From Escherichia phage HMD-9, in the sequence record PV287714.1: a stretch of 64,000 nt of DNA; one strand, written 5' to 3'. The position numbers and the translations under genes were made by a program. Below the pieces are notes generated by a model. That model worked only from the letters and a program-made list of their open reading frames with translations, was not told where the DNA came from and searched no databases. The stretch's first letter is position 1. Every line of letters begins with the position of its first letter. Of this stretch, positions 11,130 through 63,827 are shown piece after piece.

Positions 11130-11732
11130 TTATAGATTAAATCCTTCAAAATCAAGAGTATAGATAGTGTATGTTGAATGCTTTTTATACTCATATCTAT
11201 CTGCAATTCTAAATACACTTCCAGCTGGTATCATTACTTCTTGTTCATCTGAAACTAATTCCATATTACGATAGCGATGGCTATCCGGAAACTTAAAACT
11301 CGGACTATATTCTTTACAACGTAGAGCTTTTATAGCATACTCCTGAAAATTAAATACCATAGGAGCTTTGAATTCAAAAATAACTTGTGTGTTGTATTCT
11401 AATCCAGAAGCAAAATGTAGAGCTATATTTTTATCATATGAAGCTGATACTACTTTATCAAATGTAATAATATCAATTCCTTGATTTAACACCTGCTTAG
11501 TCTCAACTGGAACACCTCTCCAAAGAGGTTTATCGTTTGGTTCCAAACGAGATTTGATTATTTCATTTAACCAAGAATGATCGTCTGGCTTATTAGTAAT
11601 ACAATGAATTAAAAGTTCAATTTCAGATAAATTAAATCCTTCAGAAAGTAATTCTTCACGAATAGAAGCACGCACCGATGCATCCATTGATTTGATTTTA
11701 AAATCTTTTAATTGCATTGCTGAATATTTCAT
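11130..11732 (-). CDS. modA: ADP-ribosyltransferase ModA
   Basis: 200-aa track ORF, lower-coordinate member of tandem ADP-ribosyltransferase pair as in T4. Confidence 0.8.
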   Translation of the reverse strand: MKYSAMQLKDFKIKSMDASVRASIREELLSEGFNLSEIELLIHCITNKPDDHSWLNEIIKSRLEPNDKPLWRGVPVETKQVLNQGIDIITFDKVVSASYDKNIALHFASGLEYNTQVIFEFKAPMVFNFQEYAIKALRCKEYSPSFKFPDSHRYRNMELVSDEQEVMIPAGSVFRIADRYEYKKHSTYTIYTLDFEGFNL

Positions 11733-12364
11733 TCAACTACCTCAATATCATACACTTTAAATGTTCCAAACGAATCGTGTAATTTTTCTTTTGAAATAGA
11801 AGTTATTTTATACTTTCCAATTGGAATCATCCATTCTTGTTCACGCACAATCATCATTAAGTTATCAGTACGTTCTGAATCTAATCCATCAGTATCTTCA
11901 TATGTATACTTAAACTCAGTATTAGGAGAAGAAAGTATAATATCGCTGATATGGTCAGAGTAATTAAAAGCTTTATCAGTTTTTAAGCGAAGTACTATTT
12001 CAGTGAAATATTCAGCATAAGAAAAAGAACACGCTGTATGCAAACTAGTAGTAAATGAATCTACTCTGTTCGTTGAAAACACTTCTCCAACTTGTAAATC
12101 TTTAATGAGTTCTTTTGTCGATTTTGATATACCACGATATAGCTGATAAGGCGATTTAGTTAAATGCTTTTTAACGATTTTATTCAACTGCCGATGAAGA
12201 GCTTCATTCTTTTTGGCTTCCATACATTGCCAAAGAACTGACTGCTCAAAGTCAGTAAATTTTTCACAGACTTTTTTATACATATCATATTGAAAATCGA
12301 CACTTTCAGCTTTTATAGATAACTGTTCAACATCTGCAAGATTAATAATCATGATAGCCTCCAT
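11729..12364 (-). CDS. modB: ADP-ribosyltransferase ModB
   Basis: 211-aa track ORF, paralogous to ModA, 4-nt overlap. Confidence 0.8.
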   Translation of the reverse strand: MEAIMIINLADVEQLSIKAESVDFQYDMYKKVCEKFTDFEQSVLWQCMEAKKNEALHRQLNKIVKKHLTKSPYQLYRGISKSTKELIKDLQVGEVFSTNRVDSFTTSLHTACSFSYAEYFTEIVLRLKTDKAFNYSDHISDIILSSPNTEFKYTYEDTDGLDSERTDNLMMIVREQEWMIPIGKYKITSISKEKLHDSFGTFKVYDIEVVE

Positions 12365-16880: not shown

Positions 16881-17492
16881 TTAACCTCTATTCATAAAAG
16901 CATTAAAAATTTGGTCATCAATAGACTGTTTTTCTGATGGTAATTCATATCCACATATTACAATTTTGTGATCAATATCAAAATACACAGAAGCAATATG
17001 ATTAATGATGTTTTCAGTAAAGTCTAAATCAACATCAATATCTTTTTGACCACAGCCCAAAGGATAAATAATGCGAGTAATTCGATTATCTTTAACAAAG
17101 ATTCCACCGACATACTCTGTGTTGCGTTTAAAGTCTACACGGCGACGTAATGAAAAATATTCAGGCTCTTTATGAGCTCGGCTCATAGGACACAACGAGT
17201 AACTAGAATAAGAGATGTCAAATCCTACGCCTTCAATATGAGCCAAAGTATCATGATTAAACCAATTATAATCGTACGCCAAATCCATTAGATTATAATA
17301 TGTAAAAGGCACCGGATTAACATCATTAGTCACAAGCATGTAATTAGCAACTGCTATAATTTCATTGTTTTTGACGAATACAAACCGCGATTGATGTGAA
17401 TGACCTGGACCCGCGTTTTCACGATTAATGATATAACACTGGGCACCTTTATATTTGTATGTATCTTTGCACTTGTGCATTTGGTAGAGCAT
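16881..17492 (-). CDS. hypothetical protein (61.1/61.2 region)
   Basis: 203-aa track ORF between spackle and primase. Confidence 0.6.
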   Translation of the reverse strand: MLYQMHKCKDTYKYKGAQCYIINRENAGPGHSHQSRFVFVKNNEIIAVANYMLVTNDVNPVPFTYYNLMDLAYDYNWFNHDTLAHIEGVGFDISYSSYSLCPMSRAHKEPEYFSLRRRVDFKRNTEYVGGIFVKDNRITRIIYPLGCGQKDIDVDLDFTENIINHIASVYFDIDHKIVICGYELPSEKQSIDDQIFNAFMNRG

Positions 17493-55617: not shown

Positions 55618-56004
55618 TTATTCGAGGGAAAGAAGATATTTACTTTGATAAAACATTCCAGTAATATCATCTATCGTGCTTTGAATGGCTGGAGGCATTT
55701 CTTTGTAAATGCTGTTAGATTGGTCTAGTATGCGATCAATCATTTTAATTGTGTCGGTAGGAAGTTTACTGGCATCTGGAATAGAAGGTGTGTATTTTCT
55801 ACCAGAATACCCCAAATATTGCTCACCAAATTTATCAATCAAATCTGGCAACTCAGAGAAAATAAAATCGTATGCTTTGTGTCTAGCATAACTTTTAGTT
55901 TCAAAATGCGCAGAATGAAAATAAGCTTGTGCAGCCATTAATAAACCTAAGTATTCATCTGCCTTTGAAGGTTTTCCACTTTGTGAAAAGTCGCTGAATT
56001 TCAT
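55618..56004 (-). CDS. hypothetical protein (rI.-1-like position)
   Basis: 128-aa track ORF immediately downstream of rI. Confidence 0.55.
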   Translation of the reverse strand: MKFSDFSQSGKPSKADEYLGLLMAAQAYFHSAHFETKSYARHKAYDFIFSELPDLIDKFGEQYLGYSGRKYTPSIPDASKLPTDTIKMIDRILDQSNSIYKEMPPAIQSTIDDITGMFYQSKYLLSLE

Positions 56005-56294
56005 TCAATCTCCAATTTAATGTTCATAATTCTAGCGTATGATTGTGCCATCTCCGCGCCTCGTTCTATACATTCAAAATCGGAAGAGCACGGGTCATTT
56101 TTATAGGTCGTTCGCATAAAACTATAGAACTGTTCAGATGATTCTACGCTTTTATTTTCAAAAAGCGTATAAACATGTCTAATACCAGATTCCATAAATT
56201 TATCAAAATGAGGATCGACATTCGCTTCAATCGATGGAGATAAAACAAATGACAATCCTAGCATGGCAAATAGTGCCGTTGCTTTTAAGGCCAT
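56001..56294 (-). CDS. rI: lysis inhibition regulator rI
   Basis: 97-aa track ORF; signal-anchor MALKATALFAMLGLSFVLSP; matches T4 RI. Confidence 0.85.
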   Translation of the reverse strand: MALKATALFAMLGLSFVLSPSIEANVDPHFDKFMESGIRHVYTLFENKSVESSEQFYSFMRTTYKNDPCSSDFECIERGAEMAQSYARIMNIKLEIE

Positions 56295-56306
56295 AAAGGC
56301 CTCCTA

Positions 56307-56519
56307 TCATTTTTGCCCTGTATTTACTTTATGCCGATGCACGGCCTTAACTTTATCAAGGTATTTTTCAAAATTTCGCAATCTAGTATAGTCTGCCGGA
56401 GATTGGTTGAGTGATACTTCTCGACGCAAAGCTGAAATGATATTTCCAACTTCCCTACGAATTTCATCTAATTGAAGAACAGTAAGATTGCGAAGTTGCT
56501 TTTCAGTTAATTGTAGCAT
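56307..56519 (-). CDS. hypothetical small protein
   Basis: 70-aa track ORF. Confidence 0.45.
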
Positions 56520-56561
56520 ATATACCCCTTTAGTTAGATAAACCTATTTATAACTTTTGCA

Positions 56562-57143
56562 CTAACCGAGCTTTTTAGTTAATTCATTCCAATGTTTTCT
56601 GCACAAAGAAACATAAATTTCATCACCAATACAGATTTGATTACCTTCTTTAACTGGTGTTCCATCTTCCATTAATCGAGCTGTCATAATAGCTTTTTTA
56701 CCACAATGACAAACTGCTTTTAGTTCAATAAGTTTATCTGCAATCGCCAAAAGTTCTTTAGAACCTTCAAATAATTTTCCAGCGAAATCAGTCCTTAGCC
56801 CATAAGCCATAACAGGAACATTATATGTATCAACAATTCGGCTTAATTGATGCACCTGTTCAGTTTTTAAAAACTGAGCTTCATCTACAAATACGCAATG
56901 AATATCTTTTTGTGCTTCAGCCCATTTATAGAACTCAAAAATATCCATATCATCCGTAATAATATTCGCTTCCTGTTTAATTCCAATGCGAGAAACGACT
57001 TCACAAACAGAATCGCGAGTATCAATAGCAGGTTTAAGAACTAATACACCCATTCCGCGTTCTTTATAATTATGCGCAGCAGTTAAAAGAGAAGCAGATT
57101 TTCCAGCATTCATTGCTGCATAAGTAAAAATTAAACTCGCCAT
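56562..57143 (-). CDS. tk: thymidine kinase
   Basis: 193-aa track ORF; P-loop MNAGKS and zinc ribbon CHCGKKA...C; matches T4 Tk. Confidence 0.95.
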   Translation of the reverse strand: MASLIFTYAAMNAGKSASLLTAAHNYKERGMGVLVLKPAIDTRDSVCEVVSRIGIKQEANIITDDMDIFEFYKWAEAQKDIHCVFVDEAQFLKTEQVHQLSRIVDTYNVPVMAYGLRTDFAGKLFEGSKELLAIADKLIELKAVCHCGKKAIMTARLMEDGTPVKEGNQICIGDEIYVSLCRKHWNELTKKLG

Positions 57144-57152
57144 ATCACCTTC

Positions 57153-57338
57153 TTAAAGCGTATTCACATAAGCTATTAATTCGTTTTCTTTCTTATCAAA
57201 CCGGTTAGCAAATTCTTCTTGCTGTTCGGGAGATAGCGGGCCGTATTCATCATAAAAGGTGTTTGCTTCTGTATGCTCATCTAGAAGTTCATGGATAAGC
57301 TCAAACAATTTATCTTTTTGTTCTTTACTCAGACTCAT
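57153..57338 (-). CDS. hypothetical small acidic protein
   Basis: 61-aa track ORF. Confidence 0.45.
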   Translation of the reverse strand: MSLSKEQKDKLFELIHELLDEHTEANTFYDEYGPLSPEQQEEFANRFDKKENELIAYVNTL

Positions 57339-57508
57339 ATATTAATTTCCAGGAGTTTTAAAATAATTCGCTTTTGCTTAAATATTTCCATAGTTAAATG
57401 GTCAGTATCTTTTTGACCGATTCCAATAGCAAAACCTTTATTAACAGCGAGTTCAATTAAATTATCAAGCTCACGTAACACTTCATATTGTAACTCAAAA
57501 CTATTCAT
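57335..57508 (-). CDS. hypothetical small protein, 57 aa
   Basis: ORF below track cutoff; stop overlaps next ATG. Confidence 0.35.
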   Translation of the reverse strand: MNSFELQYEVLRELDNLIELAVNKGFAIGIGQKDTDHLTMEIFKQKRIILKLLEINI

Positions 57509-57732
57509 TTTGGTTTACCTTCTTTAACGAAATCGGGATAAGGATAAAATCCTGAATAAAATCCTTCACCTTTATGATTGATGCATCCTTTATTAGAACA
57601 ATAGCACCAATAGTCGAAATCACAAGCCATTTCATCATTACATAAAGCAAAAACAACCGGCCATTTACACTTTTCACAATGGGCATTTTTAAGAATACTA
57701 GTTTGGCTCATAACCATGTAACCTTTAAGCAA
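57505..57732 (-). CDS. cysteine-rich small protein (probable zinc binding)
   Basis: 75-aa track ORF with 8 Cys (CEKCKW...CNDEMACDFDYWCYCSNKGC). Confidence 0.45.
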   Translation of the reverse strand: MLKGYMVMSQTSILKNAHCEKCKWPVVFALCNDEMACDFDYWCYCSNKGCINHKGEGFYSGFYPYPDFVKEGKPK

Positions 57733-57920
57733 TATTCTTCTACATGTTGTTTACGACCTTTCCTATCAATAAAGGTATATTCAACGAATGTTCCAATATA
57801 GTCTTTATCTACATCATGAGGACTATTAATTGGGCATTTAGTACGGCAAATGCGTTCCCATTGACGAATAATTTCCACTTTGTTTTTAGGATCAAACGGA
57901 TGCGGGTAATGTACTTTCAT
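57708..57920 (-). CDS. hypothetical small protein
   Basis: 70-aa track ORF. Confidence 0.4.
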   Translation of the reverse strand: MKVHYPHPFDPKNKVEIIRQWERICRTKCPINSPHDVDKDYIGTFVEYTFIDRKGRKQHVEEYCLKVTWL

Positions 57921-58371
57921 AATCCACCACTATTAAATCAATATCAGGAGTAAACATGTCGATTAATTTAGAAACCTTATCCCAATCACCGCCAGCAATA
58001 CCACAACCTATGCGTGGAATGTAAATTACTGGTTTAAACAAAAGGGTCTCTGCCTGTAGATTTAATTCTATCATGCAGTTTACTAAAGCACCATAATCAA
58101 GATTAGGACCCGGTTCGTATTGTGTATACAGGTTATAGCATATACCAAATCCTGTAGGATTATGTTTAAAAACAATAGACATATCGCCTAATTTATCACG
58201 AGAACCGTACTCGGTAGTGGTTTTATCTATTTCTAAAATTTTAGGATAGGCCCTTGCTAATTGACCCGCTACACCCGAACCCATAGTATGAAAACAGTTG
58301 CACCCGTGCGCAATAATATTACCTTGAAGAAATAGGGCGACAATATCGCCCTTGATATATTTTACAATCAT
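57892..58371 (-). CDS. macro-domain protein (ADP-ribose binding/hydrolase fold)
   Basis: 159-aa track ORF; GCNCFHTMGSGVAGQL and IPRIGCGIAGG resemble macro-domain NAAN/GGGV and P-x-I-S-x-G motifs. Confidence 0.55.
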   Translation of the reverse strand: MIVKYIKGDIVALFLQGNIIAHGCNCFHTMGSGVAGQLARAYPKILEIDKTTTEYGSRDKLGDMSIVFKHNPTGFGICYNLYTQYEPGPNLDYGALVNCMIELNLQAETLLFKPVIYIPRIGCGIAGGDWDKVSKLIDMFTPDIDLIVVDYESTLPASV

Positions 58372-58709
58372 CTAGTACTCAATCCTCGATTATAAGAATC
58401 TACCAAACGGTCAACCATTGAATGACAAGCGGCTTTATCTTTCTCCTCCGCAACTGAACATTCTAAGGTATTCCACTTTTTAGCATATCGTTTTAATAAA
58501 GTATCATTCTTGTATCTACTTGATTTATCTCTTTCTCCGTCTTTATATGCATATATTAATTTCTGCGCAAATTCAGCTTGGCATGCTTTATTTTTTCCGC
58601 AATAATCCGCGGCAGTACGGTTTACATACTCTCTAATTTCAGTATATGATGTATCTGCTAACACAGAAAATGAAATTAATCCTATACATAAAACCAAAAT
58701 TTTAGTCAT
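58368..58709 (-). CDS. secreted small protein
   Basis: 113-aa track ORF with signal peptide MTKILVLCIGLISFSVLA. Confidence 0.5.
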   Translation of the reverse strand: MTKILVLCIGLISFSVLADTSYTEIREYVNRTAADYCGKNKACQAEFAQKLIYAYKDGERDKSSRYKNDTLLKRYAKKWNTLECSVAEEKDKAACHSMVDRLVDSYNRGLSTR

Positions 58710-59247
58710 TTACTATTTCCAAAAGTTTATTATTTTTAAGGTAATTAGCCTTTTCTAGGACTTCAGAAGCATATTTAGAACCTGCTTTAACATTCCATCC
58801 CGAATTATAAGAGGATATTGCTTTTCTTATATCGCCCTTATGTATATTTAACCAATAAGAAAGTTCAATGTACGCCCAGGAAGCTGAATTGGACCGTTTA
58901 TTCAACATTCTTTTTATTTCAGCATCGGTCATATTATAACCAAGTTCCTTAACTCTTGCACGCATGGTCGGCAAATAGTTTTGGAACATTCCGTAGGCAT
59001 GATGCTTTGGTTTAGATTTTAAATTAACTCCGGCAGAGCTTTCTTGCCATAAAATAGCAGCCATTATATGACCTAATCCGCTCTTGTGGATATTTTTATG
59101 TGTTTTATATTTTCCATCCTTGGAAAATTGTTCCCCGAATTGATACGCGTAACGCATGTTATCGAGTTGGACATTACTGAAAGTATGCTCGGAGCTATGT
59201 GCCATCATTGAAATGGCCAATAGACCAGCGAGTAGTGCTTTTCTCAT
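58702..59247 (-). CDS. secreted lytic-transglycosylase-like protein (SLT motif)
   Basis: 181-aa track ORF; signal peptide; WQESSAG...YGMFQ resembles SLT catalytic E-S and GLMQ motifs. Confidence 0.55.
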   Translation of the reverse strand: MRKALLAGLLAISMMAHSSEHTFSNVQLDNMRYAYQFGEQFSKDGKYKTHKNIHKSGLGHIMAAILWQESSAGVNLKSKPKHHAYGMFQNYLPTMRARVKELGYNMTDAEIKRMLNKRSNSASWAYIELSYWLNIHKGDIRKAISSYNSGWNVKAGSKYASEVLEKANYLKNNKLLEIVND

Positions 59248-59254
59248 GCTTACC

Positions 59255-59716
59255 TCATTGAGTTTTAATTACTGCTTTAGAAGCCTTTCCTGGTAAACGA
59301 CGACTGTTGATAATTGCCATCCTACACTGAAGTGACGGGTCTTTGAACTTCGCATTAGGTTTACAAACTGTAAATCCAAGCCAAAGATTTCCATCTGTGA
59401 TTTCTAAACGCCCAGGACGATATTCAACCCCATCAATAAAATCTTCGTCAATATCAGGGCGTGGAGGCATACTCAGGAATTCATTAACTTCTAAAACATG
59501 GTCTTTTATTTTGTGGAATAATTCAAAAACATATGTCTCATCAATCTCCCGCTGAATTGCACGATCAAGAAGATGCTGAGAATATTTTAGATGAAACGAT
59601 GAGACTCCTGCTGCTTTTGATGCCTCACGAATCTCATTGTTAATTTGACGAAACTCCGACTCAAAGTGACGACGGAGCTTATTTCGACGGATAAAAACTT
59701 CTGTGTTGATAGTCAT
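59255..59716 (-). CDS. regB: endoribonuclease RegB
   Basis: 153-aa track ORF, matches T4 RegB length and N-terminus. Confidence 0.9.
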   Translation of the reverse strand: MTINTEVFIRRNKLRRHFESEFRQINNEIREASKAAGVSSFHLKYSQHLLDRAIQREIDETYVFELFHKIKDHVLEVNEFLSMPPRPDIDEDFIDGVEYRPGRLEITDGNLWLGFTVCKPNAKFKDPSLQCRMAIINSRRLPGKASKAVIKTQ

Positions 59717-59743
59717 GTTATTCTCCTCTTAACTGATAGAAAA

Positions 59744-59773
59744 ATTATACTACAGTCAAGAGGAAAAGTAAAC
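59744..59773 (-). promoter_or_regulatory. T4-type early promoter for regB
   Basis: Reverse complement GTTTACttttcctcttgactgtagTATAAT. Confidence 0.6.
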
Positions 59774-59775
59774 AG

Positions 59776-60054
59776 TTATTCTTTAAATCTAATCAATTTA
59801 TTCATAGACTTTGTAACTTCTGCACGAACCTCATGTAGGTTTTTAAGCTGTTCAAGACGTTGCTCATAGTAAGCAATTTCATCTTCTTCGAGACAGTCCT
59901 GTGAATCTTCTTTAAGATAACGCGCATAGTCCTGGAAAGCTTTACGGACTACTTCCTGGAAGTCATCAAGACTTTGAATTTTCTTAGGAGCAACAGATAC
60001 ACGACGAGGGGCAGTATAATACTCATAACCAAACCCTGCGCTTAATTGAGCCAT
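59776..60054 (-). CDS. hypothetical protein
   Basis: Track ORF trimmed to ATG overlapping upstream stop (TAATG); 92 aa. Confidence 0.45.
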
Positions 60055-60320
60055 TAATATTTTTCCTCTGGTTGGAACACAGCACGACAAGCCCACATAC
60101 TGGCTTCTTTGAGTTTCGTTTTAGCAATAGTTAACTGATCAAGACTTTCAGCATAATTCTTCGCGAATTCACAGTCTTCACAATTATCTAGTGCTTCCCA
60201 GAATTCATCATATAAAGCATCAAAGATAAGTCCTAAACGAACTTCAGCATCTTTGATAGCATTCACTTTACCGATTTTCTCTTCAGTATGTGGCTTATAA
60301 CCCTTAATATCTTCAATCAT
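60054..60320 (-). CDS. hypothetical protein
   Basis: 88-aa track ORF. Confidence 0.5.
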
Positions 60321-60534
60321 ATTTTACTTTCTCACCAGTACCCAAATCATATTCAACTAAACGAATAGGTTCATGAATGCCATATCCCTGAACAGAAATT
60401 TCTGTCGTAGGATAAATTCCACTAATATCACCCATATTCCACGCTTCATTAAATTGTTGTTCGCCTGAATTACTAAACCATTCGGCGAAAGCATTTAGCA
60501 CATCTTCAGAACCTTCAATAATTATCTTTGCCAT
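60313..60534 (-). CDS. hypothetical small protein
   Basis: 73-aa track ORF. Confidence 0.45.
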   Translation of the reverse strand: MAKIIIEGSEDVLNAFAEWFSNSGEQQFNEAWNMGDISGIYPTTEISVQGYGIHEPIRLVEYDLGTGEKVKYD

Positions 60535-60908
60535 TACAGACTCTCAGTAAAGGTACGAGCGATAACGTCGCGCTGCTGTTCCGGAGTCAGAGAGTTAAAG
60601 CGAACTGCATAACCGGATACACGGATGGTCAGCTGCGGATATTTTTCCGGATGCTTAACTGCATCCTCCAGAGTTTCACGACGCAGAACGTTTACGTTCA
60701 GGTGTTGACCACCTTCAATTTTAACTGTAGGTTGTGTTTCAATTTCAATTTCACGGGCATGTAAACCGTAGAAAATTTCTGGGTCTACAAAAGAGTCCTC
60801 TTTAAAGGTTTTAGAGACAATAATTCGTGCTTGAATACCGTCTTCAAAATAAATAGTACCTTTATGTGTGCCTTCAAGAATTTGATATGCTTTCATATAA
60901 CCTCTCAA
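60534..60908 (-). CDS. grcA: autonomous glycyl radical cofactor (GrcA/YfiD-like)
   Basis: 124-aa track ORF; C-terminal 60 aa match E. coli GrcA incl. glycyl radical motif RVSGYAV; 3' half GC-rich with host-like codons. Confidence 0.8.
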
Positions 60909-61234
60909 TTAGAAAATAAATTTATCCAAGATTGCTCTTTAATTAAAAATGGCTCAGAATCATATGCCATTAAACTTTGGGTAATTAGTCCTTTAAAAGG
61001 CCCATCAATAAATTCCATGGTAAAATATGGAATTTTATTCATTAATCTTGCATTAGGAGCAGTGCACAAAACTCTGCATCCTTTGAATACGCCTTTTTGT
61101 AATTTGTATTGCTTAGGATAAAATTCGCTCAAGACGTTGTTATTTGCCAAAATTTCAAAATGATTCACCAATTTATTTTTAATAGTTTTTGGCGAAAAAT
61201 AAAGATATTCGAAAAGTTGCGTGTCTGTCATCAT
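60905..61234 (-). CDS. hypothetical protein
   Basis: Track ORF trimmed to ATG overlapping upstream stop (ATGATGA); 109 aa. Confidence 0.45.
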
Positions 61235-61806
61235 TGCATTCCGATTACGAAAAACTGCGGACGAGTAATACCACCAATGCAACAATTACTATTGCAACAG
61301 TGGTGCACAGTTTCAATATGAATATCGTAAATTTTATCCATATCAGGAGATTTAACAGGCTCATCAATTATATACAAAATCCGCGAAAGCGATAAACCTC
61401 TGAACTTGCTACCTCTATTACCAACAAAACTACGGACAGAATCAGTAAATAAACGGAATCGAATATCATCGCCAGAATAACGAGAAAATTCTTTTTTAAT
61501 GTGGCCCGCAGAAATTTTAGCATAAGATGAAGTATTAGAAAGAACAATAACCGTTCCGCCGTCATACAACCAATTAACAGCAAAATTAGTTACTGCAGTC
61601 GATTTACCTGATTGTCTGCCACCATCTAAACGAAGTGTACAGTACTGCTTGAGTACGTCTTCAAATGGTGGGGCATAACCGTTCTTACAAATTTCTTCTA
61701 CTCTAGCATCAGAATGGTGTGTAAAAGCATTCATCAGGGATAGATAAGGTCCAGTTAAAAATGTTCTCATATTATTTCTCTTAAGGTTTGGACCATTCCG
61801 TGGCAC
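61231..61806 (-). CDS. small P-loop NTPase-like protein
   Basis: 191-aa track ORF (GTG start in track); Walker A-like GGRQSGKST and Walker B-like LYIIDE. Confidence 0.45.
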   Translation of the reverse strand: MPRNGPNLKRNNMRTFLTGPYLSLMNAFTHHSDARVEEICKNGYAPPFEDVLKQYCTLRLDGGRQSGKSTAVTNFAVNWLYDGGTVIVLSNTSSYAKISAGHIKKEFSRYSGDDIRFRLFTDSVRSFVGNRGSKFRGLSLSRILYIIDEPVKSPDMDKIYDIHIETVHHCCNSNCCIGGITRPQFFVIGMQ

Positions 61807-61948
61807 ATGAATTGTCCATTTCTGTATTTACCCATTACCGCACTTGGGCTCGACCTTATTACAGGTTGGCGGGAATCCCTCATAGAATCATGAGGTCCAG
61901 GTTGTTCCCATGTTATTTGAATGTAAATAGGCCTAAATATAGGCCTTA

Positions 61949-62545
61949 TTAATTACCACGGGCTGCATTAGCAACGGCATAAGCGTACTGAACATTAGCG
62001 TCTTTAAACATACCTTTAGAGGTGTCTATTTCTGCCTTAAAGCCGCCTTTAGCCATAACATCGGCAAATTCTTTACGGAAAGCCATTGCATCAAGACCTT
62101 TCCATGATGATTTGTGCTTGGCGAATTCAAGACCAGCGTAGTTGACAGCCTTAGCTAATTTATTATCAATAACCCATTTACCAGCTTTAGGCACAAACAC
62201 AGGACCTTTCTGTTTAGAGAACAGTTTTAAATTCCAGCGACGAAGGTCAAAGTCAGCTTTAACAAAAGCTGCGTCCAAGTTACTAGCAACAACATCTTCA
62301 ATATGAGCAAATTTAAGTCCGTCAACTTCAATATTTAGGTCGGTACGCCAGCGAAGTCCTTTCCAGGCGAAAGCTTTAAAGTCGGAAGCCTTTGTAGCTA
62401 AATACCGTTCAATAGGAGCTGTTTTAGCGTCAAAACCATTTCCTGGGTTGTCAACGCCGTTTCCTCGGTAAGTCCACTCATCTTTATTAATGCCTTGGAC
62501 CTTTCCTACAGAAGCTTCGGCGATAAATTCTTTATATGTTTTCAT
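61949..62545 (-). CDS. internal protein (IPIII-like) with capsid targeting sequence
   Basis: 198-aa track ORF; N-terminal MKTYKEFIAE CTS; basic, Lys/Ala-rich body. Confidence 0.7.
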   Translation of the reverse strand: MKTYKEFIAEASVGKVQGINKDEWTYRGNGVDNPGNGFDAKTAPIERYLATKASDFKAFAWKGLRWRTDLNIEVDGLKFAHIEDVVASNLDAAFVKADFDLRRWNLKLFSKQKGPVFVPKAGKWVIDNKLAKAVNYAGLEFAKHKSSWKGLDAMAFRKEFADVMAKGGFKAEIDTSKGMFKDANVQYAYAVANAARGN

Positions 62546-62598
62546 ACGGATTCCTTAAAGGTAAATATTTTAATTGGTATGTTCAAGTAACTGTAGAT

Positions 62599-62627
62599 AT
62601 ACTATCACAATTCTAGGAGATGTAAAC
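62599..62627 (-). promoter_or_regulatory. T4-type early promoter for IPIII-like gene
   Basis: Reverse complement GTTTACatctcctagaattgtgaTAGTAT. Confidence 0.5.
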
Positions 62628-63026
62628 TTATTTGTAGGTTTTCATCCAATTCTTGAACAAAGCCACGACGTCTTTCTCTTTAACGTTCAGTTTAACGTCC
62701 AACATTTTACCACCAGCTGCTCTCGTTTGGCGAATCTTAGCAGTACCGGTTTCGCCATTCCACTCAACATAATATTGTCCAGCGTTCATTGCAATACCAT
62801 CGCCGTAGTCTTCATTTTTAGAAGTGGTGAAGGCCAGCTTCATAGTCTTAGAGACACGAGCCTGCATGCCTGTCTGAAGGGCATTACGAACGCGAATAAC
62901 CTGAGGAGTGGCCTGGGTCAGGTTCTCATTCAGTTCTTCAGTGAACTCTTCAGATTCAAACATAGCCAAAAGTTCTTTAGATGCAGGAATTACATTCTCT
63001 GCGATAAATTCTTGATACGTTTTCAT
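62628..63026 (-). CDS. internal-protein-like protein with capsid targeting sequence
   Basis: 132-aa track ORF; N-terminal MKTYQEFIAE CTS. Confidence 0.6.
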   Translation of the reverse strand: MKTYQEFIAENVIPASKELLAMFESEEFTEELNENLTQATPQVIRVRNALQTGMQARVSKTMKLAFTTSKNEDYGDGIAMNAGQYYVEWNGETGTAKIRQTRAAGGKMLDVKLNVKEKDVVALFKNWMKTYK

Positions 63027-63056
63027 TTTTGTTTCCTTGTTTGTTTTGATAGAGTA

Positions 63057-63086
63057 ATTATACCATAATAATACTTAAGCGTAAAC
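63057..63086 (-). promoter_or_regulatory. T4-type early promoter
   Basis: Reverse complement GTTTACgcttaagtattattatggTATAAT. Confidence 0.55.
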
Positions 63087-63089
63087 TGT

Positions 63090-63350
63090 TTAAGCTTTAC
63101 CGCCAGAAATAATTCCGAAGTTGTTAAAATCATATCCAATATCGTCAACATCTACTTTAGGGCTTGCTACAACATAAGCAATTTCACTACGTTTTGCATA
63201 GGTGTTTATTTCTCTACCATCGCCGCCTAGGAAAGAATACCCATTACGTTTTAATGAGCCAAAGTCTTCCGCATCACCAATGAAAGCTTTAACTTTAAAT
63301 TTAGGACCTTTGGCATCTGCTTCAGCGATAAATTCTTGATACATTTTCAT
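63090..63350 (-). CDS. internal-protein-like protein with capsid targeting sequence
   Basis: 86-aa track ORF; N-terminal MKMYQEFIAE CTS. Confidence 0.6.
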   Translation of the reverse strand: MKMYQEFIAEADAKGPKFKVKAFIGDAEDFGSLKRNGYSFLGGDGREINTYAKRSEIAYVVASPKVDVDDIGYDFNNFGIISGGKA

Positions 63351-63356
63351 TTTTCC

Positions 63357-63770
63357 TTAGTAAATTGATTTACCATAGTATTTGTACCAAGTAGGACGTT
63401 GAGCAATTTTTTCGTCTAAGCGTGCTTGACTTATCGCAATGGACGCTTCGGACGGGACATAATTATTACGAAATTCGGCAGGGATGTCAGAAATATCCTG
63501 AACAGTCGTGTCCTTGATTTTGAAACCACGTTTCAAGCATTCAGCGATTAGCTCGATTTGACGTAAACGTAAAAATTCGAGTTTGTCGTAAAAGAATGTT
63601 ACGTGTCCTGTGCCTAAGATAAATGTTGGAGAGATTTTAAAATCCTTTACGCGTTTACCGTTTTTAACATGTTTACGGACTGCACCAAATACGCGTGGTA
63701 ATTCACGATACTCAGCCATAAGATGTTGGTCGGTCAGTTCAGAAACAAGTGTTAAATTGATACGAGTCAT
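63357..63770 (-). CDS. denV: endonuclease V (pyrimidine dimer DNA glycosylase) DenV
   Basis: Track ORF trimmed to [12 protein letters not shown]; about 90 percent identical to T4 endo V from memory. Confidence 0.93.
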
Positions 63771-63780
63771 AATTTCCTCC

Positions 63781-63827
63781 AAGTAGTTGATGAATGTATA
63801 GTATCAAAACCCTTGGAGGAAGTAAAC
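63781..63827 (-). promoter_or_regulatory. early promoter with PeSL-like leader upstream of denV
   Basis: Reverse complement GTTTACttcctccaagggttttgaTACTAT followed by leader catcaactactt. Confidence 0.55.

Follow-up and report, generated by a model that had tools for sequence, protein, structure and literature searches.

The T4 gene tk.4 was the sole significant T4 gene in a HIDEN-SEQ transposon screen on a DarTG2-expressing host. A clean T4 tk.4 knockout was DarTG2-sensitive, the gene was renamed adfM (anti-DarT factor Macrodomain; NP_049723) and its product was likened to the DarG macrodomain, the support for the anti-DarTG2 role of T4 AdfM being genetic only (bioRxiv 10.1101/2025.11.20.689424). 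T4 without adfA and adfN has also been found to retain its resistance to DarTG2 (PMC11257639), which predicts a further factor such as tk.4. The BASEL T-even phages have all been reported as DarTG2-resistant.

A macrodomain protein of the chimallivirus PhiKZ, gp104, has independently been named AdfM (Cell Reports). For this protein the removal of DarT2 marks has been shown biochemically in vitro (PMC13309987), and it is imported into the phage nucleus. From bacteria, the macrodomain protein SCO6735 of Streptomyces coelicolor is known to cleave thymidine-linked ADP-ribose from DNA and to protect against DarT (PMC9411070). Phage macrodomains which erase DNA ADP-ribosylation have been recognised as a form of counter-defence only recently, and tk.4 is among them. 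As public annotations already give the macro domain and a 2025 preprint reported the anti-DarTG2 role for T4, the identity and the anti-DarTG2 function of the gene described here are already known, and nothing is new in principle.

We analysed a stretch of 64,000 nucleotides from Escherichia phage HMD-9 (PV287714.1), referred to below as the window. The sequence-only reading of this DNA had described an open reading frame of 159 aa at 57892-58371 with two motifs resembling macro-domain signatures. The open reading frame and both quoted motifs are present, and they lie on the minus strand, which that reading had not given; the plus-strand frame at 57892-58371 is full of stops. The following features define the gene:

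57892..58371, minus strand: coding sequence of tk.4 (adfM), a stand-alone macrodomain protein of 159 aa (open reading frame with ATG start)
58368..58371, minus strand: ATGA overlap of the vs stop codon and the tk.4 start codon (direct sequence reading and ORF table)
57892..57920, minus strand: 3' end of tk.4, overlapping the start of tk.3 by 29 nt (ORF table and sequence)

T4, T2, T6, and UFV-AREG1 share the gene order regB - vs.1 - vs - tk.4 - tk.3 ... tk with the window. Its position between vs and tk.3 makes the gene the ortholog of T4 tk.4. The ATGA overlap makes it likely that vs and tk.4 are translationally coupled and belong to one transcription unit. Besides the slot between vs and tk.3, the T4 protein shares its size and its PHROG with the window protein, and the first 14 N-terminal residues are identical. 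The window protein is 58% identical to T4 Tk.4 (90/155, E=1e-70), and likewise 58% identical to the Tk.4 proteins of T2 and T6. Compared with T4 Tk.4 it is 4 aa longer, owing to a C-terminal extension that overlaps tk.3. A protein of phage FL33 is 100% identical to it. Megablast found tk.4 in 561 phage records, nearly all of them Tequatrovirus, where the gene is annotated as 'macro domain protein', 'phosphatase' or 'hypothetical', and tblastn found relatives of the protein in 2,777 phage records.

In the public records of WL-3 and SHFML-11/26 the tk.4 start is placed at Met30, which gives a protein of 130 aa (window 58282-58371, minus strand). This start is probably a mis-annotation, because it would cost the protein strand beta-1 together with the invariant H22-G-C-N25 motif. 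Codons 7-13 of tk.4 (58334-58352, minus strand) contain a GC-rich hairpin of 8 bp with a T-run behind it, a sequence that T4 shares at 100%. The hairpin was flagged by a terminator scan, and a 'terminator' feature in OL631480 underlies the tk.4 match; in its context it folded no better than shuffles (z=-1.08). A promoter scan of 56000-63500 returned 25 sigma-70-like sites versus 25.2 in shuffled sequence. As this count is at the shuffled level, the scan is uninformative on expression, and the published timing of T4 was used instead, which places tk.4 in the early RNA / middle protein class (PMC9697503 supplement).

The macro-domain assignment made from the letters was borne out by profile, predicted fold and active-site motifs. 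The protein matched Pfam PF01661 (Macro) with 33.1 bits (gathering cut-off 22, E=5.8e-8) over profile positions 2-117 of 118, and it matched PHROG 335 at 1.6e-71. With this Macro-profile match the motifs are far above chance. AlphaFold on the single sequence reached a pLDDT of 33.9; this model was replaced by an AF2 run with an 82-sequence alignment (pLDDT 93.6, pTM 0.89), in which 6 strands and 5 helices make up an alpha/beta/alpha fold of three layers around a mixed beta-sheet. A search of the PDB with Foldseek gave 173 matches at E<=0.001, and all those listed were macrodomains or designed proteins built on one. The top matches, each with a probability of 1.0, were TARG1, Poa1p, BT1257, the DarG proteins of T. 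aquaticus and M. tuberculosis, and SCO6735. Where the sequence-only reading had named a non-macro fold as the finding that would speak against it, AF2 and Foldseek gave a macro fold. The best sequence match in the PDB was BT1257 of Bacteroides thetaiotaomicron, which in turn matches the ALC1/CHD1L macrodomains. By profile and predicted fold the protein belongs to the ALC1-like/TARG1-like macrodomain class.

Closer assignments within the macrodomains were tried and rejected. DarG was the best-scoring NCBIfam and PADLOC model, but with the DarG equivalog (NF048014) the score was 27.8 bits (cut-off 250), and only model positions 2-142 of 338 were covered. The two-domain architecture of DarG is absent from a protein of only 159 aa, and Gln84 stands in the column of the catalytic Lys, K80 in the T. 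aquaticus DarG. The MacroD/YmdB O-acetyl-ADP-ribose deacetylase model (NF001661) gave 16.7 bits versus a cut-off of 291. The Lys84/Asp125 dyad chemistry of TARG1 was rejected as well, both positions being different (Q84 and A126).

Three stretches of the protein make up the predicted active site:

58258..58305, minus strand: predicted ADP-ribose binding loop 1, residues 23-38, GCNCFHTMGSGVAGQL (position mapping, homolog alignment)
58120..58134, minus strand: N80-L-Y82-T-Q84 motif, with the Q84 codon at 58120-58122 (8-sequence alignment and alignment of the family profile to PDB sequences)
57988..58020, minus strand: predicted diphosphate-binding loop 2, residues 118-128, IPRIGCGIAGG (position mapping and alignments)

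The catalytic positions were called from the family-profile alignment to PDB sequences and from the 8-sequence alignment, and both agreed. The window protein has all 14 residues that are invariant in the family, H22, N25, Q84, G122, and G124 among them. Among the 82 homologs, G23, N25, C26, G33, and A35 of loop 1 are invariant, as are H22 directly before this loop, N80, Y82, and Q84 of the second motif, and P119, G122, and G124 of loop 2. N25 aligned with N27 of SCO6735. G23 aligned with V25 of that enzyme, through the backbone of which the proposed catalytic water is positioned (PMC9411070). The column of Q84 holds the catalytic Lys in TARG1 (K84), DarG (K80), and PhiKZ gp104 AdfM (FPTK), and a Gln in BT1257 and SCO6735 (Gln85). 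A126 occupies the position of D125 of TARG1. The Tk.4 protein looks like a Gln-type ALC1-like macrodomain, as far as these alignments can tell. The present work adds that, in the aligned homologs, the whole Tk.4 family has an invariant Gln at the putative catalytic-Lys position.

The active-site motifs of T4 Tk.4, including Q84, are identical to those of the window protein, loop 2 reading GAGIGKG in T4 versus GCGIAGG in the window. SCO6735 and BT1257 share with Tk.4 the Gln at the catalytic-Lys position, the Asn of loop 1 and a GCG(L/I)AGG loop 2, and in all of them the Asp of the TARG1 dyad is absent. The identity to these two proteins amounts to 26-27%, and Tk.4 differs from them in being viral and in serving counter-defence. 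In the alignment Tk.4 shows a gap of 6 columns where the Lys-bearing mobile loop of BT1257 and SCO6735 follows the Gln; the mobile loop of SCO6735 is roughly 6 residues longer and carries lysines used for DNA, which Tk.4 lacks. For SCO6735 it has been reported that Q85A is inactive and N27S nearly so, and a mechanism with a backbone-positioned water and no Lys nucleophile has been proposed (PMC9411070). The Gln in place of Lys would tie the Tk.4 family mechanistically to SCO6735 and not to DarG.

The macrodomain of DarG (DarG2) from DarTG2 resembles Tk.4 in fold, class and presumed substrate. The identity is about 20%, and DarG has Lys80 and a C-terminal DarT-binding domain, whereas Tk.4 has the Gln and a single domain. 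PhiKZ gp104 is, like Tk.4, a stand-alone phage macrodomain that counters DarTG2, but it is only 22% identical to Tk.4 and of the DarG-like Lys type, in contrast to the Gln type of Tk.4. It appears that the AdfM proteins of PhiKZ and T4 were acquired independently and merely share the name. Human TARG1 and yeast Poa1p were among the top structural matches and are of the macrodomain class as well. They differ from the window protein in that TARG1 uses the K84/D125 dyad and Poa1p is an ADP-ribose-1''-phosphatase.

From these comparisons we consider it probable, at roughly 70%, that the window gene, the ortholog of T4 tk.4 (adfM) in a Tequatrovirus, encodes a DNA-ADP-ribose hydrolase with a Gln-type site that defeats DarTG2. 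The stand-alone ALC1/TARG1-like macrodomain protein would be made early in infection and would act as an orphan mimic of the antitoxin. The host toxin DarT2 attaches ADP-ribose to thymidine, at N3, in the single-stranded DNA of the phage; Tk.4 would bind this adduct and hydrolyse the N-glycosidic bond, releasing free ADP-ribose. Replicable DNA would be restored in this way, and abortive infection by DarTG2 would be defeated. Q84, held by N25, may orient the distal ribose without the help of a Lys/Asp dyad, as proposed for SCO6735; a catalytic role of Q84 is suggested by the alignments. Likewise, the mechanism is presumably hydrolysis of thymidine-ADP-ribose on single-stranded phage DNA, similar to SCO6735, rather than binding of the toxin. 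The DarTG2 phenotype of the knockout is established for the T4 ortholog only, and the window allele, 58% identical to the tested T4 protein, would be expected to do the same. Two differences count against an anti-DarT2 hydrolase, namely that the catalytic Lys and the DarT-binding C-terminal domain of DarG are missing from Tk.4, and that the long Lys-bearing mobile loop of SCO6735 for DNA is missing, too.

A second anti-DarT factor of the T-even phages was found elsewhere in the window:

16881..17492, minus strand: homolog of 61.2 (adfA), a second anti-DarT factor of T-even phages (tblastn, 94% to T4 gp61.2)

Compared with T4 gp61.2 the window homolog has a 5-aa deletion near the C-terminus. 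AdfA (61.2) is directed at DarT1 (PMC11257639). With tk.4 and the 61.2 homolog the window carries two anti-DarT genes of the T-even phages.

The proteins neighbouring Tk.4 are 91-100% identical to their T4 counterparts. The values are 98% for Vs, 99% each for Vs.1, RegB, and Tk, and 91% for Tk.3, compared with 58% for Tk.4. At the nucleotide level a stretch at tk.4, from 57875 to 58276, is only 47-70% identical to T4; its edges are sharp, and beyond it the identity is 92-100%. The pattern indicates a mosaic allele replacement at a counter-defence gene. This allelic island, with 58% identity amid neighbours of 91-100%, is a further addition of the present work. Two main allele classes of tk.4 exist in the Tequatroviruses, and the window-type allele (amino-acid identity of at least 90%) was found in about 312 phage records.

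We considered whether the window-type allele could be tuned to other DarT2 variants than the T4 allele, or to another toxin that ADP-ribosylates nucleic acid or protein. A different target would explain the allelic island. The contrast between the 58% of Tk.4 and the well conserved flanking proteins, the existence of two main allele classes and the Gln-type active site, unlike that of DarG and PhiKZ AdfM, are all in favour of this alternative, and individual alleles of AdfA and AdfB are known to correspond to particular variants of DarT (PMC11257639). However, all residues for ADP-ribose binding and at the catalytic positions are shared by the T4 and window alleles, and the divergence lies outside the motifs. 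As the motif residues are all kept in both alleles, the same activity is expected. Moreover, mosaicism of accessory genes is common among T-even phages, so that a functional change is unnecessary. A changed target is therefore unlikely in our view; if it were true, the two Tequatrovirus allele classes would reflect a polymorphism of specificity within a continuing arms race. The two strongly diverged T-even alleles at the tk.4 locus offer a cheap and testable case of allele specificity in counter-defence.

Another alternative is that the main role of Tk.4 is the dephosphorylation of ADP-ribose-1''-phosphate or the deacetylation of O-acetyl-ADP-ribose. This function is implied by the legacy name 'A1pp phosphatase': the T4 record describes tk.4 as 'contains A1pp phosphatase motif', and a 'phosphatase' label is found in GenBank and PHROG. 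Yeast Poa1p is a strong match in fold and sequence (E=8e-15 with the family profile) and has a similar HxCNC...G.G motif. The sequence similarity to this ADP-ribose-1''-phosphatase is as strong as that to DarG, which makes a small-molecule activity possible. On the other hand, the 'phosphatase' label is a motif-based annotation, and the score with the MacroD/YmdB equivalog model is far below its cut-off. ADP-ribose-1''-phosphate arises from RNA processing of the Tpt1/KptA type. The tRNA repair by Pnk and Rnl of T4 itself is not known to involve such processing, which counts against a small-molecule substrate. In addition, the sole phenotype found for T4 tk.4 is specific for DarTG2. Taken together, we regard a small-molecule hydrolase as quite improbable and retain the hydrolysis of DNA-linked ADP-ribose as the preferred reading.

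The sequence-only reading had also placed the gene alongside the ADP-ribosyltransferases ModA and ModB, and had proposed that their product might be tuned by it. Both writers are indeed encoded at 11130-12364:

11130-11732, minus strand: modA, ADP-ribosyltransferase, 97% identical to T4 ModA
11729-12364, minus strand: modB, ADP-ribosyltransferase, 97% identical to T4 ModB

The locus (11130..12364) matched PHROG 832. A Pfam search of ModA and ModB gave no match, and both were identified via PHROG and by direct comparison with T4. The genes lie in the same genome as tk.4, but about 45.5 kb of the window separate the two loci. It could be argued that Tk.4 strips ADP-ribose, or RNA attached by ModB, from the host protein targets of Alt, ModA, and ModB, since both transferases are intact in this genome and SCO6735 and TARG1 also take protein substrates. 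However, Alt, ModA, and ModB modify arginine (PMC8120803; for ModA and ModB also PMC8883491), and arginine-linked ADP-ribose as well as RNAylation by ModB are reversed by ARH1, whereas macrodomains of the TARG1/MacroD type act on acidic residues (PMC8883491). An eraser role for ModA and ModB is unlikely because arginine-ADP-ribose is reversed by ARH-type enzymes and not by TARG1-type macrodomains, and because the loci are 45 kb apart and the phenotype in T4 is specific for DarTG2. The genes belong to different transcription units, homologs of Tk.4 are spread over many genera, in about 2,800 phage records (counted regardless of Mod genes), and the T4 screen tied tk.4 specifically to DarTG2. We found no support for an eraser of these writers, whose loci are not adjacent to tk.4, and consider this role highly unlikely; modA and modB are probably uncoupled from tk.4 in function. 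Of the functions proposed from the letters, the countering of DarT stands, on the knockout genetics of T4 tk.4, and the tuning of the arginine-linked ModA/ModB modification does not.

Finally, neutralisation of DarT2 mainly by stoichiometric binding instead of catalysis is hardly probable: the catalytically dead SCO6735 Q85A still blocks DarT in vitro (PMC9411070), but the 159 aa of Tk.4 are all macrodomain without a DarG-like C-terminal DarT-binding domain, and the strictly conserved ADP-ribose pocket favours catalysis.

The region between tk and tk.3 (57144-57732, minus strand) has a gene content unlike that of T4, and tk.1 is absent. It comprises a tk.2-like open reading frame at 57153-57338, about 54% identical to T4 tk.2, a small RB32ORF110c-like open reading frame at 57335-57508, and a small Cys-rich RB32ORF111c-like open reading frame at 57505-57717, which is identical to T6 in 70/70 residues. 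We searched downstream for nudE (ADP-ribose pyrophosphatase), which was not found within the 64 kb. At the window end the gene order is unlike that of T4. An open reading frame resembling endonuclease V (denV) is located at 63357-63782 (minus strand), and three paralogous small open reading frames, internal-protein-like and each beginning with MK(T/M)YQEFIAE, are found at 61949-63350 (minus strand).
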